Virus record (IMG/VR): IMGVR_UViG_3300042384_000288
Location: 32,001-96,000 of that record
Reading direction: 5' to 3' (one strand)
Length of the DNA stretch: 64,000 nucleotides
Origin: a virus
In this document: positions 18,542-44,122 of the stretch, one piece after another
Layout of the letters: each line of letters opens with the position of its first letter
Numbering within the stretch: the first letter of the stretch is position 1
Position numbers and translations under genes: made by a program
Notes under the pieces: generated by a model
The model's input: the letters and a program-made list of their open reading frames with translations, nothing else
Told to the model about the DNA's origin: nothing
Databases searched by the model: none

Positions 18542-18856
18542 ATGACAGAATTAGATCAACTAACCAAACAAATACGTCAAGCAACTGACTACCAAACTAA
18601 CAAGCAGATCCTGCGTGAAAAAATTCAAGCAGATTTACATTTTGCCTATAACGGAGGATTGTTCAAAACTTCGCCAGAACTAATTGGATTTATCAATGCC
18701 TGGGATAGTGAAACATTGTATTTAGAAGATACCTACGAAAATCCAATTGAAATCAATCGAGACGAATTTTTATCTTTGTGCCGGCAACAATACCAACAGG
18801 TAATGAACACTTGGCATATAGAACATGAAGAACTTAAACGTGCCCGCAAAGTCTAG
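18542..18856 (+). CDS. Hypothetical protein, first gene of the modification cluster
   Basis: 104-aa ORF overlapping the next gene. Confidence 0.7.
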   Translation: MTELDQLTKQIRQATDYQTNKQILREKIQADLHFAYNGGLFKTSPELIGFINAWDSETLYLEDTYENPIEINRDEFLSLCRQQYQQVMNTWHIEHEELKRARKV

Positions 18857-19634
18857 AGGTGTTATATTATTTGCCTTTAATACTGCGGCAGTTGACTATG
18901 TGGCAATTGCAGATCAATCAGCGCGGCTTATACATCACACGCTAAATTTGCCTGTGACGCTGATAACTGACAAAGAAACAACTACTGAACACATTGATCA
19001 AACATTTGTAGTTGAAAACAATATAAACAATGTTCGCAAAGGTTATGCTAATTTAACAGCTTGGCGCAATGGCAATAGATACCAAGCATACGAACTAAGT
19101 CCTTATGATGAAACCTTACTCATTGACAGCGACTACCTAATGTTAGATCAGTCATTGTTAAAGTTGCTTGACTTAACTCAAGATTACCAAATTATGGGCA
19201 GTAATAAATTTCTCAAAGCAGTGTCGCCTACTCTGATGTCCGCTACCAGCATACCACAGGTATGGGCCACTGCGGTACTATTCAAAAAGACCTTAAAGTC
19301 TCAACTGTTATTTGCCCTAGTAGGAAGAATACAGCGCAATTATGATTACTATAGACGACTATACAACATAACTGCTACTAACTTTCGCAATGATTTTGCC
19401 TTTGCCATAGCCAACAACATTATCAACGGCTACGCACAAGACAACTTAATACCTTGGGCTATGCTGACCGCAGAAAATCCCGTAGTCAATATAGAAACAA
19501 CAACAAATGGATTAATAGTTAGAGAAGAGTCGCAGGCATATCTAATACCTCGTCAGAATCTACACATCATTGATAAAGATTATCTAACATCACCTAAGTT
19601 TGAACTATTTGTAGACAGTCTATGCCAAGAATAA
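18825..19634 (+). CDS. GT-A-fold glycosyltransferase-like protein (GT8-like)
   Basis: YELSPYDETLLIDSDYL carries a DxD motif; N-terminal GVILFAFN...DY..IA. Confidence 0.6.
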   Translation: MKNLNVPAKSRGVILFAFNTAAVDYVAIADQSARLIHHTLNLPVTLITDKETTTEHIDQTFVVENNINNVRKGYANLTAWRNGNRYQAYELSPYDETLLIDSDYLMLDQSLLKLLDLTQDYQIMGSNKFLKAVSPTLMSATSIPQVWATAVLFKKTLKSQLLFALVGRIQRNYDYYRRLYNITATNFRNDFAFAIANNIINGYAQDNLIPWAMLTAENPVVNIETTTNGLIVREESQAYLIPRQNLHIIDKDYLTSPKFELFVDSLCQE

Positions 19635-20482
19635 CATCACACCAAGAACAGCAGGGATTTTTAACTATTGCTCAGAACACAGTAGATACTGACTATCTAA
19701 AGTTAGCCTATGTTCAAGCCATGAGCATTAAACTTGTAATGCCGCAGAGCAAATATGCAGTATTAGTTGATCACAATACTTTAGCGAGCGTAACTGAACA
19801 ACATAGACGAGTATTTGACTATGTTATCACTATTGACAATGACATGGCTGCCGACGAAACTTGGAAACTCAGTAATGAGTGGCAGGTGTTTGAACTAACT
19901 CCATTCAAAGAAACTATTAAATTAGAAAGTGATATTGTGTTTACTCGTAGTATCGAGCATTGGTGGACAGCGTTCAGACTGCGTGACATAGTGTTAAGCA
20001 CCGGCTGTAGAGATTATCGAGGTCAGTTGAGCACAGCAAGAGACTATCGTCGAGTATTTGATGATAACCAACTGCCTGATGTATACAATGGTCTAATGTA
20101 TTTTAGATACACAAGAACAGCTACGCAGTTTTTTAACATAGCTCAACAGATATATGCTAATTGGGATTATGTCAGTCAACAACTTTTAAAGAATTGTAGA
20201 GACCCGAGCCCAACCACTGACGTGGTCTATGCACTATCAGCAAAGATATTGGGAGTACAGTTATGCACGTTGCCTTCGGCAGACTTTATTAACTTTACTC
20301 ATATGAAGCCTGCTATTAATGCATGGTCTATTCGACCTTGGTGTGAACAGGTAGTATGTGAAACTGACCTACCTATGTTGCGCATAGCCAATCAAAATCA
20401 ATATCACCCAGTACACTATCATGACAAGACATGGGTTACTGATGACATTGTTAAGGAGTATGAGCATGAATTCTTTAGATGA
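19622..20482 (+). CDS. Glycosyltransferase-like protein, paralog of the preceding gene
   Basis: FELTPFKETIKLESDI (ExD variant of the same motif); NGLMYF, TTDVVYA, FTHMKP, PVHYH. Confidence 0.55.
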   Translation: MPRITSHQEQQGFLTIAQNTVDTDYLKLAYVQAMSIKLVMPQSKYAVLVDHNTLASVTEQHRRVFDYVITIDNDMAADETWKLSNEWQVFELTPFKETIKLESDIVFTRSIEHWWTAFRLRDIVLSTGCRDYRGQLSTARDYRRVFDDNQLPDVYNGLMYFRYTRTATQFFNIAQQIYANWDYVSQQLLKNCRDPSPTTDVVYALSAKILGVQLCTLPSADFINFTHMKPAINAWSIRPWCEQVVCETDLPMLRIANQNQYHPVHYHDKTWVTDDIVKEYEHEFFR

Positions 20483-20813
20483 ATTAATTAAGGCATTTAG
20501 TTTAATAGAAGAAATAGTTGAAGAGCCATTTGAATACAGAATACATTATGACGACGCTGGTAATATTACCATGTGCACCATGCAGGATCATCCTGTAGAA
20601 ACTGATTATATTGTAGTGACTAAAGAAGAATATGATAACTACTATCAATACACTGTAGTCGACGCTAAACTTAAAAAGATTGACAGGAATCCAGGATATA
20701 ATGTACAATTAATTAAGAGCAATAGTGGATATCGAGTGGTAAAGAACCACGCCGGCCTTATTGTAGAAGGCAACGAAATCTATGAGAATATAGAATACTA
20801 TGCCGCTAATTGA
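20466..20813 (+). CDS. Hypothetical protein
   Basis: ORF with AAGGAG RBS before ATG 20466. The 3' end overlaps the HNH gene on the opposite strand. Confidence 0.65.
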   Translation: MNSLDELIKAFSLIEEIVEEPFEYRIHYDDAGNITMCTMQDHPVETDYIVVTKEEYDNYYQYTVVDAKLKKIDRNPGYNVQLIKSNSGYRVVKNHAGLIVEGNEIYENIEYYAAN

Positions 20814-21475
20814 CGGCGTTTTTCTTGAGCCAATTTAACTCCGGCCGAAATCCTTGCTTTTGTTTCGTCTGATACTCCGCGAGTTCTATTAGATTCTGCA
20901 ATTTTTGCTTTAGATTCAGCTGTGTGTTGTGGTCCAGAAATTTTACCTTTCTTATGTGATGGCCGACCTTTTAGTGTATTTGATATTTTAGCTTTGTTTT
21001 CTTCTGACATTGGCCCTTTTAATTTTCCTTTTAATCTTGCAGCTATATTAGCCGCATGTTCTGCGGTTTTCTTTTTACCCTTGCTTGCTGATGACATTTT
21101 TGCTTTAGTCTCGGCAGATAAAGGAATACCTATACAGCGGAGTGTTAATAGTATAGCATATTCTTTTTTGATTTGGTTATACAACCTAGAATTTATATAT
21201 CGTTGTTGATATAATCTGCTGCGTTTCATTCCTATTGCGGCATGTATCATTTTTTTGTATGCTGTACCCGATGTCATTTTTGGCAACAACATATGACATA
21301 TAAAATGCTCACGTCCAGTTAATTTAACTAAATTGGCGCTACTATTGTTGCCGCCTAGGGATTTAGGAATAATATGATGTTTTTCGATATAAACATCTTC
21401 TAATAACTCTCTTGACTTTGCTTTATTAATGATGTTATAATATATGTTAGTGTATTTGTTGTTTATAAATATCAT
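20798..21475 (-). mobile_element. HNH homing endonuclease with NUMOD3-like repeats
   Basis: YIEKHHIIPKSLGGNN...NLVKLTGREHFICHMLL; repeated S/T-x-E-x-K-A-K-I/M-S motifs; inverted within the operon. Confidence 0.9.
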
Positions 21476-21490: not shown

Positions 21491-22393
21491 ATGACTACTA
21501 TTGTAGATGTGGCAGATTTATCAACTATTTATCTAAGTTATGACGAGCCGAGAAAAGAAGAGTTTTGGATTAAGATTCAAAACATGGTTCCGTGGGCTAA
21601 ACGTGTAGATGGGGTTAAGGGCAGTGATGCCGCGCACAAAGCCGCAGCGTCAGCCAGTGATACCGATCGCTTTGTGTTAATCGACGGAGATAACATACCA
21701 GACCCTGCCTTCTTTAATCTTCAGTTGGTATTGGATAACATATCCAGTAATAAAGTTTTTCGGTGGCGAGCCAAGAATCAAATAAACGGACTACAGTACG
21801 GTAACGGTGGACTAAGCTGCTGGACTAAAGAGTTTATAGAAAATATGCAGACACATGAAGCCAGCGATGGCAGTGCGGCTAACGATGTAGAGTTTTGCTT
21901 CTATCCTAATTATTGGGCAATGAGTGATTGCTACAGTACAACATACCCTAACGCTACACCATTTCAAGCATGGCGAGCAGGATTCCGCGAAGGCGTTAAG
22001 ATGTGTTTAGATCGTGGAGCAAAGCCCCCAATGGAAGAATTTGAGCGACGTGTACATAGTCGTAACTATGATAACTTATGTATTTGGCAAACCGTCGGAG
22101 CAGATGTTGAGAATGGATTTTGGGCTATACTCGGAGCACGTCAAGGTACGTATCTAACAATGTTAGAAGATCAATGGGACTACAAACAAGTACAAAATTT
22201 TGATGCGCTTGAAAAACTATGGAATGAATACGAAAGTATCAATGAACCCATAGATCACTGTAACCACTTAGGTGATGTATTACGTACTCGTTTAGGGTTG
22301 CCTATTGTAGACATGAATCCAGATGAAAGCAAGTTCTTTAAACATCATTATAAAAGTAACTTTAAGAATCAAGGCATAATGGTGCGTGAATAA
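21491..22393 (+). CDS. GT-A-like protein (SYDEP family)
   Basis: IYLSYDEP...RVDGVKGSDAAHKAAA...FVLIDGDN (DxD)...YGNGG...PFQAWRAGFREGVK. Homologous to the C-terminal domain of 38179..41238. Confidence 0.55.
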   Translation: MTTIVDVADLSTIYLSYDEPRKEEFWIKIQNMVPWAKRVDGVKGSDAAHKAAASASDTDRFVLIDGDNIPDPAFFNLQLVLDNISSNKVFRWRAKNQINGLQYGNGGLSCWTKEFIENMQTHEASDGSAANDVEFCFYPNYWAMSDCYSTTYPNATPFQAWRAGFREGVKMCLDRGAKPPMEEFERRVHSRNYDNLCIWQTVGADVENGFWAILGARQGTYLTMLEDQWDYKQVQNFDALEKLWNEYESINEPIDHCNHLGDVLRTRLGLPIVDMNPDESKFFKHHYKSNFKNQGIMVRE

Positions 22394-23339
22394 ATACACA
22401 TTAGAATTAGAAAATGACCAATTATTAAATATAATTCCACTGGTTAAATTCTTAAAAGATCACGAAGGAAAAGATATATCTTTATCTGTAAATCAAGAAT
22501 CGCATTGCCTTGAACATTGCAGAGTTTACGAGTTGCTTGATCTGTTTAATTTTAAGTCGGTAGTAATATATACGCAAAACTCTATTGAACAGCACAAGAA
22601 ATATATTATAGTATCGCGAGCAAGATTTTATTGGCTTCGCAAAGCAAAACTAGAAGCAGACCTAACAAAAAATTATGTATGGGATCAAACAAAAGTGTTT
22701 GGGTGCTTTTATGGCAGACCGTCTGCTGTTAGATTAGGTATAGCAGGTTATCTAACTAAAAATTATTTAGAAAAGTCATTAATAAAAATTAAATTTGATA
22801 CAACACACGAAGATTTAAGAAAACAATTTGAAATGACTAAAATATTTTCTTGGGATGTTAACAGTTTAAATAACATAGACTTATTATTATCTACTATACA
22901 GTTATCTACAGATTATGCATATAATTTACAGTCGGGTGAATATGATTACACCCATACTCTATCTAACGATTATAGAAGTATTTTTGTTGACATCATAAGT
23001 GAGCCTAACAATATAGGAAATAGCTTTTATCCGTCTGAAAAGTTTGCTCGTGCGGTGCTTTGTAAAAAACCTTTTATCGTTATGGCTCCAAAACATTATT
23101 TAAAATATCTTAAACAAATGGGATTTAAAACATTTAACAATTGGTGGAGTGAATCATACGATGATTTAGAAGTTAAGGATAGATATTTTGCTATACTACA
23201 GTTAATAGATCAAATAGCTTTATTAACAATAAATCAATTGGAAGAACTAAATTCTGAGATGTCGTCTGTCACAGAGCACAACTATCAATTATTGATTAGC
23301 GGTAATTATAGTGAAATTATAAAACCAATTAATGAATAA
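22386..23339 (+). CDS. Hypothetical protein, EK..PFI..GFKTF..ESYD family (possible GT-B/GT10-like)
   Basis: FVDIISE...SEK..R..L.KKPFIV...GFKTF..WWSESYD is shared with three other ORFs here. Confidence 0.5.
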   Translation: MNKYTLELENDQLLNIIPLVKFLKDHEGKDISLSVNQESHCLEHCRVYELLDLFNFKSVVIYTQNSIEQHKKYIIVSRARFYWLRKAKLEADLTKNYVWDQTKVFGCFYGRPSAVRLGIAGYLTKNYLEKSLIKIKFDTTHEDLRKQFEMTKIFSWDVNSLNNIDLLLSTIQLSTDYAYNLQSGEYDYTHTLSNDYRSIFVDIISEPNNIGNSFYPSEKFARAVLCKKPFIVMAPKHYLKYLKQMGFKTFNNWWSESYDDLEVKDRYFAILQLIDQIALLTINQLEELNSEMSSVTEHNYQLLISGNYSEIIKPINE

Positions 23340-24180
23340 ACCTATATTACCGTTTGTTGAAACTATGATTACACAGGTATGTAATTTAAGTTGTCACGGC
23401 TGCACTAACTACAGTGACCTACAACATGAAGGTTATGTTTCGTGGACGCAGGGCAAACAGGAATTAGAAGCATGGCTTACTCGAGTCGATATTTTAGATT
23501 TTGGTATATTGGGTGGTGAACCGCTAGTTAATCCAGAAGTGGACAAATGGATTGTCGGCCTACGAGAATTGATGCCCAATGCACAGATACGTTTTACTAC
23601 TAACGGTATCAAGTTGGATAAAAAGTTTCATCTGATTCAATTACTGCACGATATCGGTAACTGCGTGATTAAGATTGGCGTACACGTAACCGATCCTAAA
23701 TTAGAAGCAACTATACAACGCATATATGACAGTTATGATTGGGAACCAGTTACTGAATACGGTATAGACAGACATATTACAGGCGACCGTGTACGCTTTC
23801 ATGTTAAACGACCGGACACGTTCTATAAAACATATCAGAGCACTTATGCTGATATGAAACCACATAATAGTAATCCTGCAGAAGCGTTTGCTATTTGCTG
23901 TCAACAAACCTGTCCACTATTATATCAAGGCAAGCTGCATAAATGTAGTACTGCTGGGCTAATAAAAGAAACATTAGCTAAAGTGGGCAATCCTAACATG
24001 GATCTGTGGGAGCCAGTTATTGATCATGGTATAGGAACCGATTGTAGTGATACGGAATTAGAGAGATTTTTGGATAACTTCGGCAAACCTAATGACATTT
24101 GCCGCCAATGTCCCACCTTAGCGGATACCAATGCTAAAATTATTCATATTGACAATGTATCAACAAAAAAGATTAAATGA
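23332..24180 (+). CDS. Radical SAM protein with a Cys-rich C-terminus
   Basis: CNLSCHGC, GGEP, TTNG; C-terminal CCQQTC...KC...CRQC. Confidence 0.9.
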   Translation: MNKPILPFVETMITQVCNLSCHGCTNYSDLQHEGYVSWTQGKQELEAWLTRVDILDFGILGGEPLVNPEVDKWIVGLRELMPNAQIRFTTNGIKLDKKFHLIQLLHDIGNCVIKIGVHVTDPKLEATIQRIYDSYDWEPVTEYGIDRHITGDRVRFHVKRPDTFYKTYQSTYADMKPHNSNPAEAFAICCQQTCPLLYQGKLHKCSTAGLIKETLAKVGNPNMDLWEPVIDHGIGTDCSDTELERFLDNFGKPNDICRQCPTLADTNAKIIHIDNVSTKKIK

Positions 24181-25202
24181 ATATAAGCATACAAACATTG
24201 GATAGAAAGATTTGGCGCAAAGATTTACTAGTAGATGCGTTACGTCAATGCTACAGCACAAATCAGCCAATTCTATTAGATTTTAGCCCAGAGGGATCTT
24301 GCGCAGAAGCGTTGGGATTATACAAACTATTGGATGATTTCTGTCATCGATCAGGGTATAGCAAGCAACTTATTACAATTAAAACAGCTAATATGCTTGA
24401 GCATCATGCTGAATATAATATTATTAAAGATGTTAGCTGCTGGTATGAAGTAGCTAAAATTAAAAAATGGCTGATAGGCAAGACTTTAGATATCCGCTAT
24501 ACCCCAACTAAACATTTTGCTAATTTTTCTAGTAGAAGTAATTGGTATAGATTATGGATTGCAACTATATTAGACAAATATTATGCTGATAAAACGCTAC
24601 AAACATATCATTATGATCCGCTGAGAGAAAATTTTAATGGTAACGGTTATGTTGGATTAGATGATTTAATAAATTATAAATGTGACATTGTAACTGACGC
24701 TGTGGAATTTATTAAAACTTGTCCGCGCACCTTAGATATAGAATATTTACAAAATTTAGATAATTGTAAAGATAGCATATTTCAACATGAAAATAGTTAT
24801 TATCCAATACAACACCCATCAAATTTAAATTTGTTGCAATATTATAATGATATATTTGTTGATGTTGTATGTGAACCAAATGTTAGTGGTAATTGTTTTC
24901 TAGTAACGGAAAAACTATGGAGATGCATTGTCGCACGTCGTCCATTTATAGTAATGTCAAATCCTAATTACCTTGCTAATCTACATAAATTAGGATTTAA
25001 AACATTCAACGACTACTGGTCCGAGGAATATGATTATTATAGGCAAACAAACCGCATACATAAAATTGAATCATTATTAGCTAGTATTGTAACAATGGAT
25101 ACCGGTGAATCATTGACTAAAATGAAAGATCTATTAGATCATAATTATAATGTATTCATGATGTTGAATCAGTTTAAACTTCGAGGGGCATTTATTCGAT
25201 GA
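24177..25202 (+). CDS. Hypothetical protein, EK..PFI..GFKTF family
   Basis: FVDVVCE...TEKLWR...RPFIV...GFKTF..YWSEEYD. Confidence 0.5.
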   Translation: MNISIQTLDRKIWRKDLLVDALRQCYSTNQPILLDFSPEGSCAEALGLYKLLDDFCHRSGYSKQLITIKTANMLEHHAEYNIIKDVSCWYEVAKIKKWLIGKTLDIRYTPTKHFANFSSRSNWYRLWIATILDKYYADKTLQTYHYDPLRENFNGNGYVGLDDLINYKCDIVTDAVEFIKTCPRTLDIEYLQNLDNCKDSIFQHENSYYPIQHPSNLNLLQYYNDIFVDVVCEPNVSGNCFLVTEKLWRCIVARRPFIVMSNPNYLANLHKLGFKTFNDYWSEEYDYYRQTNRIHKIESLLASIVTMDTGESLTKMKDLLDHNYNVFMMLNQFKLRGAFIR

Positions 25203-26353
25203 AAATAACTGTGTGGGCACGCGACCCGTGGTGGGATCAATATTACTACGGACTATTTAAAGATATGGCTGAAATTATGCCCGACAATAGCGAGATGCAT
25301 TATATTATATACGATCCTATCTCACGTAATTTTGAAAAAATAAAAAAAACTACCTACACTGAAAAATTAGTAGGATTGATGATTATAGAAGAACTACAGT
25401 ACGAATGTGACTACACTAGTAATCAATTCTCTCCCGCTGCGGCACACATTATCGATTTATGTAATTTAAATCCCAATACACAGTTTATTATATTTACGGA
25501 AATTGAATATTTTAATAAAGAAGTTCCGGAGATCAGTAATCTCCGGATTGTGCCAGTGGGCACCGGCATAATGTTTGAGCATGCGCATCGTGATACAATA
25601 ATCCCAGTAACTGAAAAGAATTTGTTATCTACTCAAACATTTGTGAGTTTAAATAGATCAGTTCGACCTAGTAGAGTTACATTACTAAGTTATCTATTAG
25701 GAACAAGCCTGGCGGACTGCGGATACCTTTCATTTAATTCAATGGATTTAATTAAAGATCATTCTTCTTGGTTGAGTTATTGTCCGTGGGGTATACCGGA
25801 TAAATACCGTCAGGAAATATTAGATGGTTTTGAATTATTAAAAGTTGGCCACGGGATTACCCAATCGATAACTGCTGTTGATAATCTCTATAATATACAG
25901 GCTTGCGATAATGTTACTAATTTTAATGAATTTTTGCGAAGTATTTATAAAAATACATTTGTGGAAATTGTGTCAGAAACAACGTTTACTTTACCGGGTA
26001 TATTAGTTACAGAAAAAACAAAAAATAGTATATACGGATATAACTTTCCTATTTTTGTTGCTGGAAAAGGCATAGTTAATCATTTAAAAAATGATCTTGG
26101 ATTAGATATGTTTGACGATATTATTGATCATAGTTACGATACTATTGAAGATAATGTTACACGCATCACTACAGCTATAGATTCTAATAAACGACTGCTA
26201 ACAGATTCTTCGTATATTAAGAGTTGCTGGCAAAATAATTTTGATAGATTTACTAGTAACGTACACATATTACGTACCCAAATTGAAAAATTTTATCGGC
26301 AACGAGCATGGTCTAAATTAACTGATATATTGAGAGAATGTGGCTATAATTAA
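25199..26353 (+). CDS. Hypothetical protein, EK..PFI..GFKTF family
   Basis: FVSLNR..RP.R; FVEIVSET...TEKT...FPIF...IIDHSYD. Confidence 0.5.
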   Translation: MKITVWARDPWWDQYYYGLFKDMAEIMPDNSEMHYIIYDPISRNFEKIKKTTYTEKLVGLMIIEELQYECDYTSNQFSPAAAHIIDLCNLNPNTQFIIFTEIEYFNKEVPEISNLRIVPVGTGIMFEHAHRDTIIPVTEKNLLSTQTFVSLNRSVRPSRVTLLSYLLGTSLADCGYLSFNSMDLIKDHSSWLSYCPWGIPDKYRQEILDGFELLKVGHGITQSITAVDNLYNIQACDNVTNFNEFLRSIYKNTFVEIVSETTFTLPGILVTEKTKNSIYGYNFPIFVAGKGIVNHLKNDLGLDMFDDIIDHSYDTIEDNVTRITTAIDSNKRLLTDSSYIKSCWQNNFDRFTSNVHILRTQIEKFYRQRAWSKLTDILRECGYN

Positions 26354-34932: not shown

Positions 34933-35005
34933 AATCAAACTTGAAATTCAATATCGTAAAAAGTTAAAAGAACTACGCAAAAGAGATCCTTTCATTTACA
35001 AATAG
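34904..35005 (+). CDS. 33-aa basic peptide MTWLRRIINRIKLEIQYRKKLKELRKRDPFIYK, below the ORF-track cutoff
   Basis: Strong AAGGAG RBS; the stop lies 1 nt before the next ATG. Confidence 0.75.
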   Translation: MTWLRRIINRIKLEIQYRKKLKELRKRDPFIYK

Positions 35006-35006
35006 T

Positions 35007-35645: not shown

Positions 35646-35796
35646 CACAGTATCCATTGTGATGTTCTTGTTTACCTTTAGCAACCTGATCACGCATTGC
35701 TGGTAAACTTAGTTTGTGGGTTTTACAAAATTCTGCTAAATTATTGGTCTGCTCAATGTTATAATACCAATGGGTGTATTTGTTTGTTAAATACAT
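35623..35796 (-). pseudogene. Internally deleted HNH homing endonuclease (57 aa)
   Basis: MYLTNKYTHWYYNI (compare MIFINNKYTNIYYNI of 20798..21475) joined directly to a C-terminal DNA-binding-like segment NLAEFCKTHKLS; no HNH core. Confidence 0.7.
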
Positions 35797-35885: not shown

Positions 35886-37376
35886 ATGAATATTCTCGGA
35901 ATTAGTGCTGGGTTTCATGACGCAGCCGCAACATTAGTTAGCAGTCAAGGTGAGATATTATTTGCTGGGCATAGCGAACGCTACAGCAAGCATAAGCACG
36001 ACAGTGACCTACACAGTGATCTAATTACAGATGCTGTTAGATACGGACGACCTGACTGTGTGGCCTACTACGAAAGACCTTGGGTCAAAAAAACTCGACA
36101 ATTGTATGCAGGACAATACAGTGAATTAAAACAAGGGTGGACTGTACGAGGAATGCTTAAACGTACAGTTCCTGAAATTAGTCACTTACCAATTACCGCA
36201 TATAATCATCACCTTAGTCATGCCGCTGCAGGATTTCAAACAAGTCCGTTTGACACTGCAGCAGTGGTAGTAATTGATGCTATAGGTGAGTGGGATACTA
36301 TTAGTATTTGGTCAGCAACGTATAACAATGCAGGTCAAGCAAAATATACTAAAGTATGGGGTCAAAAATATCCGCATAGTATTGGCCTAATGTACTCAGC
36401 TTTTACTCAGAGTGTTGGGCTCAAACCTATGGATGAAGAATATATTCTAATGGGCATGGCTGGATGGGGCAAACAACAGAATTGGTTCCAAGCTGACAAT
36501 CTTAAAGCTAGCCTAATAGAAGATGAAGTAGCAATGATCTTTAAACATAATTTACATATTGGCTTGCCGGGCAAGATTAAAGGTAATTGGACTAATGAAG
36601 ACACAGCACGAGCGGCACAAGAACTTGCAGAAGATTTGATTAGCAATGTTATGCACCGTGCCAGCGAACTTGTACCAAATAGCAATTTAGTCTATTGCGG
36701 TGGTGTAGCACTTAACTGTAGTGCTAATCGTATGTTAGGAGAATACTTTGACAACATTTGGATTATGCCTAATCCTGGCGACGCTGGCAGCAGCCTTGGG
36801 GCAGCGGCCCTTAAATACGGTAAGAGATTGGTGTGGCGCGATGCTTATCTTGGCCACAATATTAGCGGGGACTATCCTGTTAGACAAATCATATCTGAAC
36901 TCGTTACTAACAAAATTGTCGGAGTTGCAAGTGGTAGGGCAGAGTTTGGACCCCGAGCCTTAGGCAATCGTAGTTTATTAGCAGACCCACGTGGTGACAC
37001 AATTAAGGATCAGGTAAATGAAATCAAACGAAGACAAAAATTTAGACCATTCGCTCCAGTTATATTGGAAGAACTTGTCCATGAGTATTTTAGCATGCCT
37101 CGCAATTGGAATAGTAGCCCATATATGCAAACTGTCGCTGAGTGTCGTTATCCTGATCAGTTCCCTGCTATTGTGCATATTGATGGTACCAGCCGTGTGC
37201 AGACTGTGCCAAAAGACGGATCAGGAATAAGACAGTTATTGGAACAGTGGTACACTTGGACAGGTTGCCCTATGTTGTTAAACACTAGCTTGAACATTCG
37301 AGGAGAGCCAATGGTCAATGATCGTGCAGATGCTGACCGATTCGAGCAATTATACGGAGTTCGTGTTTTATCATGA
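35886..37376 (+). CDS. O-carbamoyltransferase (CmcH/NodU/TobZ family)
   Basis: MNILGISAGFHDAAA, ERYSKHKHD, HHLSHAA, DAIGE, GGVALNC, PGDAG, EFGPRALGNRS, RPFAP, LLNTSLN. Start moved to the MNILG ATG. Confidence 0.95.
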   Translation: MNILGISAGFHDAAATLVSSQGEILFAGHSERYSKHKHDSDLHSDLITDAVRYGRPDCVAYYERPWVKKTRQLYAGQYSELKQGWTVRGMLKRTVPEISHLPITAYNHHLSHAAAGFQTSPFDTAAVVVIDAIGEWDTISIWSATYNNAGQAKYTKVWGQKYPHSIGLMYSAFTQSVGLKPMDEEYILMGMAGWGKQQNWFQADNLKASLIEDEVAMIFKHNLHIGLPGKIKGNWTNEDTARAAQELAEDLISNVMHRASELVPNSNLVYCGGVALNCSANRMLGEYFDNIWIMPNPGDAGSSLGAAALKYGKRLVWRDAYLGHNISGDYPVRQIISELVTNKIVGVASGRAEFGPRALGNRSLLADPRGDTIKDQVNEIKRRQKFRPFAPVILEELVHEYFSMPRNWNSSPYMQTVAECRYPDQFPAIVHIDGTSRVQTVPKDGSGIRQLLEQWYTWTGCPMLLNTSLNIRGEPMVNDRADADRFEQLYGVRVLS

Positions 37377-37774
37377 GAATATTAATTTGTGGTCTGCCAG
37401 GCTCGGGTAAAACTACACTAGCACACGCATTATCAACATTGATAGATTGTATATGGTACAATGCTGATGCAGTTAGAAGCAAGTATAATGATTGGGATTT
37501 TTCTAAAGAAGGCAGACTACGTCAGGCAACACGTATGAAAAAGTTAGCCGATGACAGCAACGGTCACATTGTATGTGACTTTGTTGCTCCTACCAAAGAG
37601 ATACGTGATATCTTTGATGCTGACTATGTTGTATGGATAGATACAATTAAACTAGGTAGATTCGAAGATACAAATAAAGTATTTGAGCCACCGGAGCATT
37701 ACGATATACGGGTAACAGAACAAGATGCCGCACGTTGGGCAGCTATTATTGCCAAGGAAATAAATGAAGCCTAA
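37373..37774 (+). CDS. Adenylylsulfate-kinase-like P-loop kinase
   Basis: GLPGSGKTT, NADAVR, DFS.EGR.RQ, FVAP, FEPP. Confidence 0.7.
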   Translation: MRILICGLPGSGKTTLAHALSTLIDCIWYNADAVRSKYNDWDFSKEGRLRQATRMKKLADDSNGHIVCDFVAPTKEIRDIFDADYVVWIDTIKLGRFEDTNKVFEPPEHYDIRVTEQDAARWAAIIAKEINEA

Positions 37775-38186
37775 ACACCAAACAGCACACATGCGAGCCG
37801 CACATATCTACGCTGAACTAAGCACAGCACGTAGACTTAAAGTGGGCGCACTTGTAGTTAAAGATGATAGAATTGTATCAATTGGCTACAACGGTATGCC
37901 CAGTGGATGGGACAACAACTGTGAATATGATTTAGAAGATGGAAATATTAAAACTAGACCGGAGGTATTACATGCAGAAACTAACGCACTTGCGAAATTG
38001 GCTAGAAGTACTGAGTCTGGTCTTGATGCTGATTTATTTGTTACTCATAGTCCTTGCTTGGATTGTGCCAAGCTCATATATCAGAGTGGTATTAAACGAG
38101 TATTCTATGCTACTGCTTACCGCGATAATTCCGGGATTAATTTCCTTAAATCTTCGGGTATTGACGTAGAGCAACTAGATGTTTGA
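37764..38186 (+). CDS. dCMP deaminase (ComEB/T4 cd-like)
   Basis: RLKVGA, GYNGMP, HAE, SPCLDC, SGIKRV. Confidence 0.9.
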   Translation: MKPKHQTAHMRAAHIYAELSTARRLKVGALVVKDDRIVSIGYNGMPSGWDNNCEYDLEDGNIKTRPEVLHAETNALAKLARSTESGLDADLFVTHSPCLDCAKLIYQSGIKRVFYATAYRDNSGINFLKSSGIDVEQLDV

Positions 38187-41100
38187 TGTGTTCTACACGG
38201 GCCCAAAGCCTGGCTTATTTCCATTTGAACTGCCAGCTGATACATTAGCAGAAGCTGCTAGTTTAAGTCGTACTAAGTTTTTTTGGTTCGTCGATGGACA
38301 AAATGACTACACGAGATTTGATTTTAATTTTCGTGCAGTACCCTGGGAAGAACATCAGATACACACCTGGCCAAATCAATGGCAGGTAGACGGCGGCACA
38401 TACTTTGCTAACAAATATACGATTCAAGATCGTATACATAACTTTCACACAGAGACATACACACATCGATTGCCTAATTTAGATTATTGGCATATACCCA
38501 ATAATGTAGACCTTGACAGCGTTGATTATCGCTGGTGCCCTGATACAAAAGAACCTCCATACATTTATGTATTTGGAAATCAATGGAACTCTGCTGTATT
38601 AGAACCAACAGCAATCTATAGTATTCTCGGAGCAACTGAATACAAATATATGGAAGAAATGCCAGTGCGTGTTCTATCAATGATGGACCAGTGGACTCTA
38701 TTAGATGATATCTTAGATTTTGATTATTCGTGGAGACCCAATCCTAAAGAACCACCGTATATCTATATATTCGGCAATCAATGGTTGACTCCAGAACAAC
38801 GACCAGCATTGAAATACACTGTTCTCGGTGCTACGGAAATTAAGTATATGGAATACCCTAAGGCTAATAGAGTAAGTAAGCCAGAGTTATTCATTACACA
38901 TTATGCCTGTGAGTTCGATTATAGTTGGGAACCTGATCCCGGCAGTCCACCATACAATTATATTTTCGGTAATCAACATTGGCCTGCTGAAATTATGCCC
39001 ACAGTAGAATATCATATGGCAGGTGCAACTGAAGATAAATTTATGGATGAACCCAGGGCACAACTAACAGCAACGTCTGAGAATTGGCAGACCTTAATAA
39101 ATTGTGAGTTTGATTATTCATGGTGCCCTGACCCGGGAGACCCGCCATACATTTATGTATTTGGCAATCAATGGTATGCTGGTACAGAAATGCCGACTGT
39201 GGAGTATCATGTGTTCGGTGCTACGGAACGTAAGTTCTTAGATGAACCTCGTGCAAGACTATTTCCTATAATGGAACGCTGGACTGTACCAGAAGAGGTA
39301 GATGCAACGAATATTGATTTTAGTTGGGTACCTCACCCAAAAGATGCACCTTACATACATCACTTTGGATCTGAATTTCAAATGAGTGTAGGATTGCTTT
39401 ACACAGTACCAAGCGCGACAGAACCTAAGTTTGAGGGTGAAATACCATTAATTAAAATTGAAAAGAAACAATTACAAGTATTAGACATATTCTTTATTGA
39501 CAAGAGTAATGTTAGTTCTGCTGCACGTTATGAAAAGTTAGTTGAACAATATCCACATGCGCAACGAGTGCGCTATGTCAATTCAATGATTGATACAATT
39601 CGTCGTTGTATTGCACGAGCAAAGTCTGGTAAGTTTTGGGTTATTAGTAGTGAAAACGTCTACGATAATTTTAATTTCGCATGGCATGCACAACCATGGC
39701 AAAGTTATATGACACATGTATTTGGTTCACAACATCAGAAGTGGAGTGATACATATTTAATTAATCGTTGGGAGTTTGAACGTACTGTCACTTGGGCTAA
39801 TAGCTTGGAAGAATTTCCAAATCTTAACTTTGTGCAAGATCAAAGTATTATTATTCCGGATGACCTACACGACATTTACTATGTAGATCACAATAACCAT
39901 GACAATGGCGGGCTAAACAGCATACAAACCCGGTTTAACAAGGTTAAAGTAACTAGATATGTTAGTGACTATCTAAATACATTTAAACGCATAATGTCTA
40001 CTGCAACTACAGAATATGTTTGGATTATCAGCAGTTTATGCGACTACTCTCGCTTTGACTTTAGTTGGCAACCAGAGCCGTGGCAACGAGAAATGATACA
40101 TGTGTTTCCTAGTGCCGATCAACCGCGCGGTGATACTTTTTATATTCACGTCGAATCGTTTAAAAAACAAATGGACAAACTTGAACTATTAGATTGGTTT
40201 GATGTTATTAATTATTGTGAAGAACAGCGTGTTCCTCGACTACCTATACCGTGTATTACGTATAAAGGAGACAATCTCGTTGATGTAATTAAACAGCACG
40301 AATTTGAACATCCTTATACATGGTTCGTTCCTTACTTTAGTGACATACTGTATAACCCAAGCATTTGGAGTCTAAAAGATAAGAAAATCATGTCTTTTTC
40401 ACCTAATAATGGCTATATTTTAGCACCAAGAGAAGCTAAAAATTATATTAATACACAAGTATATGATTATCCTTATATTAGCAAAAATTCTAAAATATCT
40501 AGCCTAAATCAAGACATTATATTCATTAGCTACGATGAACCTAATGCAGATGCTAATTGGCAGATATTAAGCAGTAAATACCCGCAGGCTCGCCGCCTAC
40601 ACGGCGTAGAAGGTATAGAAATAGCTAAACTAAAAGCTGCAGAAATGAGTTCAACTGATTGGTACTATGCTGTATTTGCTAAAACAGAACTACATCCAGA
40701 CTTTGATTTTAGTTTTAGTCCTGACCTATTTCAAGAACCTAAACACTATATATTTCACGCAGAAAACCCCCTCAATGGACTATGCTATGGACACATGGGT
40801 GTAGTTTTATATAATTGCGGCGTAGTTAAAGCTACTACTAAGTTTGGCATAGATTACACCATGAGTGCACCGCACGCTGTTATACCTATCACTAGCGCAA
40901 TTGCTAGATTTAATAGTGACCCTTACCAAACATGGCGTACTGCTTTCCGTGAAGCAAGTAAACTAGCACAATTCTGCGACGAAACAGATAATGTAGAAAA
41001 CAGCTATCGATTAAATATATGGACTAGCAAAGCAGAAGGACCATACAGTGAATGGTGTTTACAAGGAGCTCGCGACGGAGTTATGTTTTATCATGCTAAT

Positions 41101-41238
41101 AAAGAAGATAAAACCCAGTTAAAAAATGCATTCAACTGGGTTTGGCTACGAGAGTATTTCAGCAGTTTATATAAAGATACTAACGAACCAGATCTAAACG
41201 ATCTACTACAGCGTCAACAACTTTGGCAACAGCAATAG
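38179..41238 (+). CDS. Large multi-repeat protein with tandem GT-A-like modules
   Basis: Five 65-68-aa DYSWxP..PPYIYxFGNQW repeats, several degenerate modules, and a C-terminal ISYDEP...YGHMG...PYQTWRTAFRE domain. Confidence 0.6.
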   Translation: MFDVFYTGPKPGLFPFELPADTLAEAASLSRTKFFWFVDGQNDYTRFDFNFRAVPWEEHQIHTWPNQWQVDGGTYFANKYTIQDRIHNFHTETYTHRLPNLDYWHIPNNVDLDSVDYRWCPDTKEPPYIYVFGNQWNSAVLEPTAIYSILGATEYKYMEEMPVRVLSMMDQWTLLDDILDFDYSWRPNPKEPPYIYIFGNQWLTPEQRPALKYTVLGATEIKYMEYPKANRVSKPELFITHYACEFDYSWEPDPGSPPYNYIFGNQHWPAEIMPTVEYHMAGATEDKFMDEPRAQLTATSENWQTLINCEFDYSWCPDPGDPPYIYVFGNQWYAGTEMPTVEYHVFGATERKFLDEPRARLFPIMERWTVPEEVDATNIDFSWVPHPKDAPYIHHFGSEFQMSVGLLYTVPSATEPKFEGEIPLIKIEKKQLQVLDIFFIDKSNVSSAARYEKLVEQYPHAQRVRYVNSMIDTIRRCIARAKSGKFWVISSENVYDNFNFAWHAQPWQSYMTHVFGSQHQKWSDTYLINRWEFERTVTWANSLEEFPNLNFVQDQSIIIPDDLHDIYYVDHNNHDNGGLNSIQTRFNKVKVTRYVSDYLNTFKRIMSTATTEYVWIISSLCDYSRFDFSWQPEPWQREMIHVFPSADQPRGDTFYIHVESFKKQMDKLELLDWFDVINYCEEQRVPRLPIPCITYKGDNLVDVIKQHEFEHPYTWFVPYFSDILYNPSIWSLKDKKIMSFSPNNGYILAPREAKNYINTQVYDYPYISKNSKISSLNQDIIFISYDEPNADANWQILSSKYPQARRLHGVEGIEIAKLKAAEMSSTDWYYAVFAKTELHPDFDFSFSPDLFQEPKHYIFHAENPLNGLCYGHMGVVLYNCGVVKATTKFGIDYTMSAPHAVIPITSAIARFNSDPYQTWRTAFREASKLAQFCDETDNVENSYRLNIWTSKAEGPYSEWCLQGARDGVMFYHANKEDKTQLKNAFNWVWLREYFSSLYKDTNEPDLNDLLQRQQLWQQQ
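38524..39432 (+). repeat. Five degenerate 195-204-bp coding repeats
   Basis: Units begin at 38524, 38722, 38917, 39112 and 39316. Confidence 0.85.
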
Positions 41239-42073
41239 CATTATCTACATCACTTTTAGGAGTTTTTCTGGTAGTAACGCAATCAATAAAATGTTCTAAT
41301 TCTAATTGCAGTGGGCTTTTATTTAGATCTGGTATATAACTTTCGTCTAATTTAAGTTCAGTAAGTTTACAGTCAATGACAGTGCCTTGATATAGATCTA
41401 CACAATTAGCTACATCATCCCATACAATACTACCTTGTTCGCCAATAATAGTGATCTTACGAATCTTTTCTGGCCAATACCAGCTGCCGGTAATGCGCAC
41501 TGTGGCATCTCCAGCAATCATATTGAAGTTTACATAATCTGGTTGCTGATTGTTGGTAAATCTGGCGGCATCTACGTCAGCAACCAAAATATTTTCGCCT
41601 AATAGTTCTAACATAATGCTAACGTCATGTGTAAGTAAAGTATGCATTGGTGTAGTTTTGGTTTGATAGATACCCCAATTAAGTCGTTGACTGTCTACAT
41701 GTTTAATTTTACCAATACGATAAATATTTTTTTTAATCCACTTTATAGCGGGGTGATATAAGAATATATGGCCAACCATTAATATTCTATCCCCTTGTAA
41801 ACCTTTAAACAATTGGCAACAATGTTCTGTTTCTGCTAATGGTTTTTCAATGTAACAATCAAAACCTCGTGTTAATAATTTAGCACCTGTGTTAAAGTGA
41901 TCCCATACGGGTGTGGCTACTATCGCAGTCTTGATATTGGAGTCAATATCATCAATATTCTGTTTATTTTTAATATCGATGATTTGAAATTTACCCACTG
42001 CAGGATTATTTTCTAAACTGCTAATGATCTTGTTACCCCAATAACCACCGCCAATTAATGCTATATTAATCAT
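41180..42073 (-). CDS. Gfo/Idh/MocA-family oxidoreductase
   Basis: IGGGYWG, ATP..H, IEKP, VGH.F.YHP, HD. Confidence 0.9.
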   Translation of the reverse strand: MINIALIGGGYWGNKIISSLENNPAVGKFQIIDIKNKQNIDDIDSNIKTAIVATPVWDHFNTGAKLLTRGFDCYIEKPLAETEHCCQLFKGLQGDRILMVGHIFLYHPAIKWIKKNIYRIGKIKHVDSQRLNWGIYQTKTTPMHTLLTHDVSIMLELLGENILVADVDAARFTNNQQPDYVNFNMIAGDATVRITGSWYWPEKIRKITIIGEQGSIVWDDVANCVDLYQGTVIDCKLTELKLDESYIPDLNKSPLQLELEHFIDCVTTRKTPKSDVDNAIAVAKVVDAVVDRLDLVR

Positions 42074-43154
42074 TTTGTACCCACGCTTTAACTAAGTTAA
42101 TAATATAATCTTGTTGTTCGATAGTCAAGGTATGATAACAAGGTAAACTGACAATTCTACGACACATAGCTGATACTTTAGGTGTGGGCTCTGTTATGTA
42201 TTTTTGGAATATTGGCTGTTCATTTAGACTTTCTAAGTAGTGTACATTACAAGTAACTCCTTTGGCCTTCATGTATTCAATAAATTCATCTCTACGGGGA
42301 ATTTCTATTACATAAACATAATAGGTATGATAACACCAATCATATTCTTTAGGTGTTACTACATAGTCTTTTAGCTGTTCAGTATAACGATGACAGATAC
42401 TACGTTTGCTATCTAACCAACGATCTAAGTGTGGAAGTTTAGCCTGTACAACTGCGGCCTGCAGATTATCAATACGTGCGTTAATACCGCGTACTTCAAA
42501 CGTCCATTTGTTTTGACGTCCATGATTGTTATACATTCTGCATTTAGCAATTAATTCTCGACTGCCTGTAATAGCACCAGCATCACCCATAGCACCTAAG
42601 TTTTTAACAGGATTAAAACTAAAACAGGTCAAATCTACTAAACTACCTACTTGTTTGCCTTTGTACCTAGTACGTACACTATGAGCGGCATCTTCAATTA
42701 ACCATAGATCATATTTGTCAGCTATCTCACGTAAGCGATCAATATCTGGTGTGTGGCCATACATGTCTACAAATAGAATAGCTTTGGTCTTATCGGTGAT
42801 TCTGCGCTCAATTTGATCTACATCAATTTGGTGATTATCATCTATATCAACAAACACAGGATTAGCACCCTGCCAAATAATTGCTTCGCTGGTACTGATA
42901 AATGTGTGTGGAGTTGTAATAACTTCGTCACCTTGTGTAATACCTATCGTCATTAACGCACACATAAGAGCAGTAGTTCCACTGCCAGTAGCACAGCAAT
43001 CTTCTGCTTCTACAAAGTCAGCAAACGCTCGTTCAAATTCTGTGGTAATACTACCTGCAATAAAACCACTACTGTCGATCACTCGACGGATAGCTTGATC
43101 TATTTCAGTTTTAATTTCTAAATTTTGTTTTGTTAAATCGGTAAAAGGTATCAT
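42066..43154 (-). CDS. DegT/DnrJ/EryC1/StrS PLP-dependent sugar aminotransferase
   Basis: MIPFTDL, SGTTAL, EDAAH, FSFNPVKNLGAMGDAG, NARIDNLQAA. Confidence 0.95.
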   Translation of the reverse strand: MIPFTDLTKQNLEIKTEIDQAIRRVIDSSGFIAGSITTEFERAFADFVEAEDCCATGSGTTALMCALMTIGITQGDEVITTPHTFISTSEAIIWQGANPVFVDIDDNHQIDVDQIERRITDKTKAILFVDMYGHTPDIDRLREIADKYDLWLIEDAAHSVRTRYKGKQVGSLVDLTCFSFNPVKNLGAMGDAGAITGSRELIAKCRMYNNHGRQNKWTFEVRGINARIDNLQAAVVQAKLPHLDRWLDSKRSICHRYTEQLKDYVVTPKEYDWCYHTYYVYVIEIPRRDEFIEYMKAKGVTCNVHYLESLNEQPIFQKYITEPTPKVSAMCRRIVSLPCYHTLTIEQQDYIINLVKAWVQND

Positions 43155-44122
43155 TAATTTCCCTTCCATAATATGGGATTTTTTAAATACCAATTATAGT
43201 ATCGATAAAATCCTTCTTCTACATCTACTGTGGGTGTATAGCCTAATTCTTGTTGAGCACAACTAATATCCAATCGACCTCGTTTAGGAAAACTTAAGTC
43301 ACGTGGTGCTATTTCTAACTGCCCTTGACCTGCAATTTTAACCGCAAGTTCGGCAGCATCTTTCAAAGTCCATTGGCGTTTTTCTGAACGTGTAATGTTA
43401 TAGATATTACCGTTGGCTACGTCTTTAGTTGCTGCAAGCACAATACCCATAGCAGTATCTTCTACATAGGTGAAGTCTAATACTTCATCTGGACCATTTA
43501 CCTTAAGTGTTTCGCCACGCATGGCTTTGGTCATAAACTTACTGACCACACGATCCTCGACGTCCCATTCACCGTATACAGCACTTGGACGAATAATCAC
43601 ATGTTCAAACCAACCACGGCGACTATAATCTTCTACAAGTTTCTCACCCATATACTTCATAATGCCGTATTGTCCGATTGGCTTGCAGACTGCATCTTCA
43701 GAAACATCAGCAGTGAAATCACCGTAGACCATGCTTGAACTAATGTAGACGAACTTCTTAACACTGTGCTTTTTACATGACTCTAATAGGTTAATTAATC
43801 CGGTTGACATAACTTCGCTGGCTGTGGCTGGATCTTGCTCTACTACTTTTTGGCGCGGATAGCTGGCCATATGTATAACTACATCAACTTCGCTAACACC
43901 AATCGTAGTGTCTAACTTATGTTGATTGCGTATATCTACTGGATATACTTCTGAAGCAAAACGTCGACTGCGATGCTGGCTTAAGTAGTTGATTTCTGAT
44001 TGCGGAATAAAACCGTAGCCAGTATTAGTATCTACTACCACGCATTCGTGTCCTTGTGATTCTAAAATGCGTGTGACATTGTGTCCAATAAATCCAGCAC
44101 CACCTGTGATTAAGTACTTCAT
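43154..44122 (-). CDS. NAD-dependent nucleotide-sugar epimerase/dehydratase
   Basis: ITGGAGFIG, SSSMVYG, YGIMK (YxxxK), DFTYVED. Confidence 0.95.
   Translation of the reverse strand: MKYLITGGAGFIGHNVTRILESQGHECVVVDTNTGYGFIPQSEINYLSQHRSRRFASEVYPVDIRNQHKLDTTIGVSEVDVVIHMASYPRQKVVEQDPATASEVMSTGLINLLESCKKHSVKKFVYISSSMVYGDFTADVSEDAVCKPIGQYGIMKYMGEKLVEDYSRRGWFEHVIIRPSAVYGEWDVEDRVVSKFMTKAMRGETLKVNGPDEVLDFTYVEDTAMGIVLAATKDVANGNIYNITRSEKRQWTLKDAAELAVKIAGQGQLEIAPRDLSFPKRGRLDISCAQQELGYTPTVDVEEGFYRYYNWYLKNPILWKGN

Follow-up and report, generated by a model that had tools for sequence, protein, structure and literature searches.

Evidence for a glycan-building and tailoring gene block, rich in radical SAM enzymes, behind the fibre genes of a jumbo phage

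What does a jumbo phage make with some 23 kb of enzyme genes placed directly behind its fibre genes, and where would the product go? The stretch of DNA considered here (the window) comprises 64,000 nt, positions 32,001-96,000 of the IMG/VR contig IMGVR_UViG_3300042384_000288. The contig is 111 kb long and CheckV puts its completeness at 32%, which points to a jumbo phage of ~340 kb; the closest cultured relative is the 343-kb Ralstonia phage RsoM2USA. Within the window, ~24 plus-strand genes (18542-41238, ~23 kb) sit behind three paralogous fibre-like genes, and start and stop codons overlap between most genes throughout this block. A sequence-only reading had proposed that the block is a dedicated glycan pathway, listing three GT-A-like glycosyltransferase (GT) genes, a multi-module GT-like protein, three EK..PFI..GFKTF proteins, six radical S-adenosylmethionine (SAM) domains, two SGNH proteins, a carbamoyltransferase, an APS-kinase-like protein and a converging trio of epimerase, DegT and Gfo/Idh/MocA genes, and all of these classes are present where it placed them behind the fibre genes. 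From the GT-A and GT-B folds, the C3-type DegT protein, the NovN/GdmN/TobZ-type carbamoyltransferase and the GT-B genes that relatives interleave with radical SAM genes, we conclude that a dedicated glycan-building and tailoring pathway is well supported. The fuller version of this view, that a fully soluble, cytoplasmic pathway assembles and heavily edits an oligosaccharide that is then placed on a phage protein made nearby, is in our estimation evenly balanced between right and wrong.

The glycosyltransferase-like genes are the natural place to begin.

18825-20482, plus strand: two paralogous GT-A-like genes, o18825 (18825-19634) and o19622 (19622-20482), with weak glycogenin (GT8) resemblance
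21491-22393, plus strand: o21491, glycosyltransferase-like protein with a GT-A fold, best conserved of the block's GTs (AlphaFold 2 model, pLDDT 75.7)
22386-23339, plus strand: o22386, GT-B-fold (GT10/GT47-like) protein in a variable slot, 31% identical to o24177
24177-26353, plus strand: GT-B-fold EK..PFI proteins o24177 (24177-25202; AlphaFold 2 model, pLDDT 83.1) and o25199 (25199-26353)
38179-41238, plus strand: o38179, multi-module protein of 1019 aa whose residues ~780-1005 form a GT-A module paralogous to o21491

The firmest GT-A assignment is that of o21491. The top Foldseek matches of its model are all GT-A glycosyltransferases, and residues 4-154 superpose on B4GALNT1 with a VIA Z of 9.8 and a root-mean-square deviation (rmsd) of 3.2 Å over 140 residues. 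The structural matches include PBCV-1 A64R, which glycosylates the chlorovirus capsid, and the peptide S-glycosyltransferase SunS. Residues D65, D67 and N68 (IDGDN) are invariant among 14 homologues and, as judged from the alignment, would match the DxD motif with which GT-A enzymes bind metal and nucleotide sugar after the fourth strand. Since IspD-type nucleotidyltransferases reach a Z of ~9, nearly equal to that of the GT-A enzymes, the fold of o21491 is assigned and its activity is not. Searches of Pfam, PHROGs and PDB sequences gave no match to o21491, and its family profile yielded only noise against the PDB.

The other two genes that the sequence-only reading had called GT-A-like fared less well. 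o18825 and o19622 match one another by blastp (E 5e-7), and their joint profile finds 13 matches in the PDB, all of them glycogenins, the best at a weak E of 0.008. The family has an invariant D104 within the consensus LDSD. There is no PF01501 or other Pfam match, and hhalign against E. coli WaaJ/WaaO gives a probability of 0.8%. We call both proteins GT-A-like, with a GT8 resemblance, with reservation.

The three EK..PFI..GFKTF proteins listed by the sequence-only reading (22386, 24177 and 25199) are paralogues of one another, and o24177 models as a GT-B fold. The AlphaFold model of o24177 was built on 16 homologues, and all 50 of its listed structural matches are GT-B glycosyltransferases, including EXT1/2 (exostosin; VIA Z 10.3), H. 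pylori alpha1,3-FucT (residues 1-341, Z 10.0, rmsd 4.5, 226 residues aligned), a phage GT and T4 beta-glucosyltransferase. No EK..PFI..GFKTF protein has a Pfam match (E up to 10) or a PHROG or PDB sequence match. When the PDB is searched with a profile, a GT10 enzyme does appear at a weak E of 1.1, aligned at the E..TEK stretch that is invariant in the EK..PFI family, and the same invariant motif is seen when o22386 is aligned with the o24177 family (A2). The model of o24177 also aligns over its full length with GT10 fucosyltransferases (H. pylori FucT, FUT9 and mango FucT13; Z 8.4-10.0). However, o24177 has no Pfam GT10 match even at E 10, and GT47 exostosin and T4 beta-glucosyltransferase score equally, so what is assigned is the fold and not the family.

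The claim of a multi-module GT-like protein holds for the C-terminal part of o38179, where residues ~780-1005 match o21491 by blastp at E 3e-15, but not for the N-terminal ~780 residues, which consist of tandem ~65-aa repeats and short modules. The copy number of the repeats explains why homologues range from 233 to 1210 residues. Within residues ~100-420 (window 38179-40500) there are five repeats of ~65 residues with the pattern DYSWxPDPxxPPYIYxFGNQW...GATExKxM, followed by two FxxD...DFSWxPxPW modules. Pfam, PHROG and PDB searches with o38179 gave no match, and the ESM Atlas returned viral hypothetical clusters only. The sequence-only reading had made it a test that the GT-like open reading frames (ORFs) should model as GT folds; o21491 and o24177 do so, as GT-A and GT-B respectively, although their sequence families have no GT match.

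If a glycan is built, what would edit it? The candidates with the largest share of the block are the radical SAM proteins.

26428-33004, plus strand: five N-terminal-twitch (N-twitch) radical SAM modules in four genes (26428-27819; 27803-29179; 29176-31731, a double module; 31718-33004)
23332-24180, plus strand: o23332, small generic radical SAM protein of 282 aa in the variable slot (PF04055, 49.7 bits; CNLSCHGC motif)

The count of six radical SAM domains proposed earlier was borne out: five belong to NCBIfam NF033640, with 282-388 bits each against a cut-off of 170, and the sixth, o23332, reaches only 27.6-29.7 bits with that model and is not a member. All five N-twitch modules share invariant C8, C26, C79 and C82 (twitch), then C132, C136 and C139 (CxxxCxxC) followed by GGEP, and the SPASM Pfam model matches the N-terminus of these proteins. 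They thus resemble the NF033640 family (N_Twi_rSAM) in having a Cys-rich N-terminal domain ahead of CxxxCxxC and in scoring well above the cut-off, but that family has been catalogued only, whereas here it occurs as an array of old paralogues that includes a two-module fusion. That the paralogues are old follows from their being only 20-32% identical to one another. The fusion (29176-31731, 851 residues) is recent, since it is two separate genes in five relatives (L018, L022, L025, L026 and L027). A PDB sequence search with the 851-aa protein came back empty. The nearest solved relatives of the N-twitch modules, at weak scores, are led by TvgB, an enzyme of RiPP biosynthesis (RiPPs being peptides made on ribosomes and modified after translation), with viperin, BlsE and MoaA close behind. 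In the literature we found nothing that names a reaction for NF033640, and matches to "N-terminal twitch" and to DPFIY were uninformative on function. An alignment of all five modules proved too divergent to scan genomes with. One of the radical SAM proteins has >8000 metagenomic homologues on contigs of up to 308 kb.

N-twitch genes also occur away from this kind of block. The metagenome-assembled genome (MAG) of a predatory bacterium, a member of the Bacteriovoracaceae, carries nine N-twitch paralogues above the cut-off on seven contigs (G001; L040, L050-L054), three of them on one 8-kb contig. The neighbours of the bacterial genes are PhoX, FeoB, a deformylase, a HAD hydrolase and one GT1 enzyme, and because these neighbourhoods are mixed, with neither glycan nor peptide genes consistently present, no N-twitch function can be read from that context. 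The cultured KVP40-like Vibrio phage K566 (L055, OZ196521.1, 153-182 kb) has 5-6 distant N-twitch-like genes, all annotated as hypothetical, and its locus has no detectable GT, SGNH, carbamoyltransferase or peptide homologue.

Behind the radical SAM genes lie further tailoring and nucleotide genes, and at the end of the plus-strand run a minus-strand trio converges on the block.

34114-34932, plus strand: o34114, SGNH/DUF6071-like protein (DUF6071 25.4 bits, just under the cut-off of 27), its N-terminus paralogous to o35007
34904-35005, plus strand: gene for a basic peptide of 33 residues (MTWLRRIINRIKLEIQYRKKLKELRKRDPFIYK), filling the gap before the second SGNH gene
35007-35645, plus strand: o35007, SGNH/DUF6071 hydrolase-like protein (DUF6071 35.9 bits, cut-off 27; Lipase_GDSL_2 weak)
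35886-37376, plus strand: O-carbamoyltransferase of NodU/CmcH/TobZ type (Carbam_trans_N 127 bits, 1e-36; Carbam_trans_C 168 bits, 2e-49)
37373-37774, plus strand: P-loop kinase-like protein of 133 aa (APS_kinase E 6e-7, profile positions 5-90 of 152 only)
37764-38186, plus strand: dCMP deaminase (PF00383, E 3e-22), found in some relatives only
41180-42073, minus strand: Gfo/Idh/MocA oxidoreductase (Pfam match)
42066-43193, minus strand: DegT aminotransferase (Pfam match)
43154-44122, minus strand: SDR epimerase/dehydratase (Pfam match)

Both SGNH proteins named in the sequence-only reading are real candidates, o35007 scoring above the DUF6071 cut-off and carrying an N-terminal GDS block (residues 6-13, VGDSFTYG), and o34114 falling just below yet being paralogous to it. 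The carbamoyltransferase has both Carbam_trans domains, and its nearest solved relatives are NovN, GdmN and TobZ (E 1e-34 to 1e-44); it stays below the NodU equivalog cut-off (143 vs 1000 bits). Its true start is likely the ATG at 35886 rather than the TTG at 35829 chosen by the ORF finder, and its relatives are 494-500 aa long. The 133-aa protein had been called APS-kinase-like. It is a P-loop protein, but only the first half of the APS_kinase family is matched, and it lies under all NCBIfam cut-offs (best 32.7 bits vs 127), so we rejected APS kinase as its identity and prefer P-loop kinase-like. The dCMP deaminase probably belongs to nucleotide metabolism rather than to the glycan pathway.

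All three members of the convergent trio gave the Pfam matches expected of them. The nearest solved relatives of the DegT protein are the C3-aminotransferases QdtB, DesV and WbpE, and this closeness fits the idea of a 3-amino sugar. The Gfo protein scores 69 of the 450 bits of UDP-GlcNAc 3-dehydrogenase, a weak match. A route of WbpB/WbpE or GnnA/GnnB type would fit a 3-amino sugar, its substrate and regiochemistry not being readable from sequence. Relatives keep the convergent DegT and SDR pair at this place, and the Gfo gene is unique to this phage.

To see which parts of the block belong together, we compared 27 related IMG/VR loci, which were fetched with a radical SAM protein and in which o38179 homologues were then found by tblastn; scanning IMG/VR for an o38179 pattern had yielded no confirmed relative. 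The sequence-only reading had proposed co-occurrence in relatives as a test, and a common backbone is indeed syntenic behind fibre genes in ~20 of the 27 loci, so that the arrangement is not due to chance. The backbone starts with the fibre genes, a small protein, two GT-A-like genes, another small protein, the GT-A gene o21491 and the variable slot. It continues with 4-8 N-twitch radical SAM genes, o32982 and 1-4 SGNH genes accompanied by the peptide gene, and it ends with the carbamoyltransferase, the kinase-like gene, the multi-module GT-A protein and the convergent DegT and SDR pair. Only some relatives have GT-B genes and a small radical SAM gene in the variable slot (o23332 itself is present only in L008, L018 and L025), and three loci (L022, L025 and L026) have further GT-B genes interleaved among the radical SAM genes. 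In RsoM2USA a minimal core adjoins the virion genes and consists of the small protein, the two GT-A-like genes, o21491, one N-twitch gene and a second o21491-like module, so placed that the single N-twitch gene stands between two GT-A-like genes. Among 50,697 phage records only RsoM2USA carries an o21491 homologue, which makes the block accessory even within the wider clade.

This anatomy bears directly on function. Glycan loci have this pattern, in which the core is conserved and the transferase slots and sugar-nucleotide module vary, and the tight interleaving of GT genes with radical SAM genes suggests that the radical enzymes work on the same product. If the block operates as we propose, the trio would convert host UDP-hexose or UDP-HexNAc to a 3-amino sugar nucleotide, the conserved GT-A enzymes would start the chain and the variable GT-B enzymes would extend it. 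Each radical SAM module would perform one radical sugar edit, for example C-methylation, epimerisation, oxidation or deoxygenation, and the SGNH, carbamoyltransferase and peptide module would add or trim acyl and carbamoyl groups. Host RNA polymerase would switch the block on before the late fibre genes, and the finished glycan would pass to a fibre or to the giant virion protein, where it would alter adsorption or shield the particle.

The 33-residue peptide raises a different possibility, namely that the product is anchored on the peptide or is a free small molecule, the peptide acting as scaffold or precursor, or the product being an aminocyclitol-like pseudo-oligosaccharide. Small peptides are built upon in this manner in the mycofactocin pathway, where the precursor is processed by a radical SAM enzyme and then oligoglycosylated, and in the scaffold-peptide ("pearlin") pathways. 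Of the 27 related loci, 23 encode the peptide, among them those of a clade in which enzyme identity is only 25-45%, and a large protein database holds 244 clusters of it, mostly called at exactly 33 aa. It is nearly invariant, strongly basic and helical, with a Tyr in its C-terminal tail. Its invariant residues are encoded by up to 4 synonymous codons, which shows that selection acts on the peptide as a protein. This breadth and very strong constraint speak for a peptide-based product, as do the facts that SPASM/twitch radical SAM enzymes are typically peptide maturases with TvgB the top solved match here, and that DegT, Gfo/Idh/MocA, a TobZ-type carbamoyltransferase, GT-B and twitch radical SAM genes together resemble aminoglycoside gene sets. 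Set against this, the peptide tracks the carbamoyltransferase (23 of 23 co-occurrences) and SGNH genes, not the radical SAM array: RsoM2USA, Vibrio phage K566 and a bacterial genome rich in the N-twitch family all lack it, and the L030/L033 lineage likewise has radical SAM genes without it. Moreover, neither a protease nor an exporter nor a RiPP recognition element was detected, the Gfo gene occurs in this phage alone, and a strongly basic helical peptide would equally suit a simple enzyme partner. We therefore regard a peptide-anchored or free product as rather unlikely.

The comparison with mycofactocin can be made more closely. In that pathway a small peptide is acted on by the SPASM radical SAM enzyme MftC and the glycosyltransferase MftF, and the block is similar in encoding a small conserved peptide, with Tyr in the C-terminal tail, together with auxiliary-cluster radical SAM and GT proteins. 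It differs in having no MftB-like chaperone, no peptidase and no MftA similarity, and in that its peptide follows the carbamoyltransferase, not the radical SAM genes. The boldest form of the idea makes the 33-residue peptide the carrier of a glycosylated, carbamoylated and radically edited conjugate that is used free or moved to the particle, and we think this improbable. Similarly doubtful is the proposal that the N-twitch enzymes form a new class of radical glycan editors whose product is built on a phage-encoded carrier. If the peptide were the carrier, the block would be a viral counterpart of the mycofactocin-like or scaffold-peptide natural products.

Where, then, would the glycan be attached? 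A virion protein, the peptide and the host envelope are the candidates, and a fibre or the giant virion protein would be the most likely acceptor. The virion genes concerned are these.

3-11276, plus strand: giant virion structural protein, 5' end open, at least 3757 aa (phrog_10938, E 1e-41); context, outside the pathway
13219-18458, plus strand: fibre-like genes, the paralogues 13219, 14653 and 15984 together with o17541 (PHROG virion structural and tail fibre matches)

The three fibre paralogues share a common N-terminus (blastp E 1e-37 to 1e-65 among them), and one of them has a C-terminus of intramolecular-chaperone (IMC) type (Peptidase_G2 IMC domain, E 4e-5). The giant protein has a weak tblastn match to RsoM2USA ORF361, and ORF361 (the giant protein), ORF359 (the sheath) and ORF356 of RsoM2USA have been detected in virions (PMC8504454). 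A virion-protein target appears favoured by the anchoring of the block to virion genes over deep divergence, by the soluble nature of the predicted pathway and by the viral precedents. As to solubility, a membrane segment is predicted in none of the proteins of the block, and hence it would lack lipid-carrier initiation, a flippase, a polymerase and a ligase.

Whether the block is expressed together with the fibre genes is a separate matter, on which the gap of 83 nt that parts the last fibre-side gene from the block is informative.

18465-18527, plus strand: sigma-70-type promoter TTGACA-18-TG-TATAAT (18465-18494), followed by a hairpin and U-run (18495-18527)

This promoter, which lies in the gap and has the extended -10 TG, matches at 12 of 12 positions, as does no other plus-strand site in the window; in 9 relatives a promoter is kept at the same position with 10-12 of 12 matches. 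Directly after the -10 box comes a terminator-like hairpin, which folds in the window, in L018 and in L020 with differing stem letters. A transcript begun at the usual distance from the -10 box would start within the 5' arm of the hairpin and lose it, and such a transcript would therefore escape the terminator-like structure. Five other perfect 12/12 sigma-70-type promoters, where less than one is expected by chance, are all on the minus strand (50094-59425) and precede a 5'-3' exonuclease gene, an AAA ATPase gene and small ORFs. Where the gene behind such a site could be identified, it was of replication type. We infer that fibre transcripts end at the hairpin and that host polymerase transcribes the block as a unit of its own, probably early. 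The position of the block behind the fibre genes, as described by the sequence-only reading, thus stands, but the block, with a promoter of its own and a hairpin in between, is no mere extension of the fibre operon. The idea of a late operon was dropped because the T4-type late promoter TATAAATA is not enriched (4 sites vs 10.9 expected); there are only isolated ATAAATA boxes, before 14653 and 21491.

Early expression is also what would be expected if the block remodelled the host envelope, altering lipopolysaccharide (LPS) O-chain or capsule precursors on the cytoplasmic face and so blocking competing phages. The sigma-70-type promoter resembles the ones that precede replication genes, a WbpB/WbpE- or GnnA/GnnB-type route to a 3-amino sugar belongs to the classical chemistry of LPS, and a role of this kind has been proposed for GT-rich islands beside fibre genes (PMC7029224). 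On the other hand, the block has neither a membrane segment nor an initiating phosphoglycosyl transferase, flippase, polymerase or ligase, its link to fibre and virion genes holds in very distant relatives including RsoM2USA, and a 23-kb exclusion system would gain a lytic jumbo phage little. For these reasons we consider envelope remodelling unlikely, and attachment to a virion protein remains our preferred reading.

The same promoter, taken with the dCMP deaminase and the small P-loop kinase within the block, could also be read in favour of phage DNA that is hypermodified with a glycan or a carbamoylated side chain to evade restriction, which the sequence-only reading had offered as an alternative target. 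The genome further carries GTP cyclohydrolase I and a PTPS-like gene (a 7-deazaguanine set), and phage and T4 DNA glucosyltransferases are among the GT-B structural matches. This target is weakened by a canonical ThyA, which scores 341.7 bits against an equivalog cut-off of 327 for true thymidylate synthase and is followed by DHFR: with both enzymes the phage makes ordinary dTMP, and DNA glycosylation becomes the least likely option. This protein is the only ThyA homologue in the window, which comes from a 32%-complete genome, and no pyrimidine hydroxymethylase was seen there. In addition, many relatives have kept the block but have no dCMP deaminase, and the two gene sets differ in their surroundings, virion genes for the block and replication genes for the 7-deazaguanine set. 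DNA as the target is in our view highly improbable. As for their positions, ThyA and DHFR (45417-46785, minus strand) adjoin the block, and the PTPS-like and GTP cyclohydrolase I genes lie within 55986-63259 (minus strand), which fits a 7-deazaguanine gene set.

Several points weigh against an edited glycan on a virion protein. None of the seven GT-like proteins matches a curated GT family in Pfam, PHROGs or NCBIfam, even at E 10. Two of the three genes called GT-A-like have the glycogenin match at E 0.008 as their sole support, the GT8 profile comparison having failed. The nearest solved relatives of the N-twitch proteins include, besides the peptide maturase TvgB, enzymes that act on nucleotides or sugars (viperin, BlsE and MoaA), and in the one Bacteriovoracaceae MAG the bacterial members do not consistently adjoin glycan genes. 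With its early-type promoter, and with a terminator-like hairpin in between, the block is uncoupled from the fibre genes. Finally, the product, the acceptor and the enzyme activities are predictions from sequence and structural models.

Comparison with known systems shows what would be new here. Gene islands of a related composition have been described at annotation level as the "host recognition clusters" of pelagimyophages and cyanomyophages, which contain fibre, GT and radical SAM genes and, in the pelagimyophages, were proposed to modify the host O-chain (PMC7029224). The block is like them in being a large variable island with GTs and radical SAM cassettes that adjoins a giant structural protein and fibre genes, but no N-twitch array, carbamoyltransferase, peptide or conserved backbone was defined there (PMC7029224), and this phage belongs to an RsoM2USA-like jumbo lineage and is not a pelagimyophage. 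Another report, in an Fe-S context, notes 12 radical SAM genes in a marine T4-like genome (PMC5332604). The earlier statement that such a combination has no characterised precedent is thus right in that no member has been characterised, but islands of this kind are known as annotations (PMC7029224, PMC5332604). We found no description in the literature of this backbone, peptide or promoter arrangement.

The closest functional precedents lie in virion glycosylation. Chloroviruses such as PBCV-1 glycosylate their virion proteins in the cytoplasm with virus-encoded enzymes. Glycans on mycobacteriophage capsids and tail tubes have also been reported (Freeman et al. 2023, as cited in PMC12619734). 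The PBCV-1 A64R and mycobacteriophage systems are similar to the block in using soluble virus-encoded GT-A and GT-B enzymes near structural genes with no lipid-carrier machinery. In contrast, they have few GTs and no radical SAM, SGNH or carbamoyl tailoring, while the glycan and acceptor of the block are predictions and its promoter is of an early type. Virus glycosylation known earlier amounts to a handful of systems with few transferases, and here the block takes 5-10% of the genome. A very abundant jumbo-phage lineage of aquatic and soil habitats combines divergent GTs with radical SAM enzymes that number up to eight or more. Solving the product would assign a chemistry to a catalogued radical SAM family, explain a near-invariant micro-peptide and show whether large phages decorate their adsorption apparatus, the host or a free molecule. 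Since RsoM2USA is in culture and holds the minimal core, the question is directly testable.

The remaining genes of the block are three conserved proteins and one insertion.

18542-18856, plus strand: o18542, conserved protein of 104 aa and first gene of the block, with homologues in 17 of the 27 loci (33-73% identity)
20421-20813, plus strand: o20421, conserved protein of 130 aa, with homologues in 17 of the 27 loci
20798-21475, minus strand: HNH/NUMOD3 homing endonuclease (NUMOD3 E 2e-9, HNH weak)
32982-34136, plus strand: o32982, conserved protein of 384 aa, with homologues in 20 of the 27 loci

Library searches gave no family match for o18542 or o20421, and o18542 has a homologue in RsoM2USA at 36% identity. 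For o32982 there was no family, ESM Atlas or structure lead, its own model being poor. These three proteins, together with the promoter and hairpin, the 33-aa peptide, the dCMP deaminase, the homing endonuclease and the lack of membrane proteins, do not figure in the sequence-only reading.

The homing endonuclease gene (20798-21475) is inserted between a coupled pair of block genes, and none of the 27 related loci has it. On either side the insertion is bordered by sites that look like a terminator (20800-20819) and a promoter (21412-21441). Upstream of the carbamoyltransferase there is a 57-codon endonuclease relic (35623-35796, minus strand) with an N-terminus similar to that of the homing endonuclease.

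On the fibre side, Asn follows Ala, Gly or Ser at 27 of 42 positions in o11273 (11273-12394, plus strand), against ~31% expected from composition. The bias stems partly from a tandem repeat and is weaker in o14653 (20 of 44). As o11273 is the only fibre protein that stands out, and partly through its repeats, we did not take Asn-context sequons as evidence.

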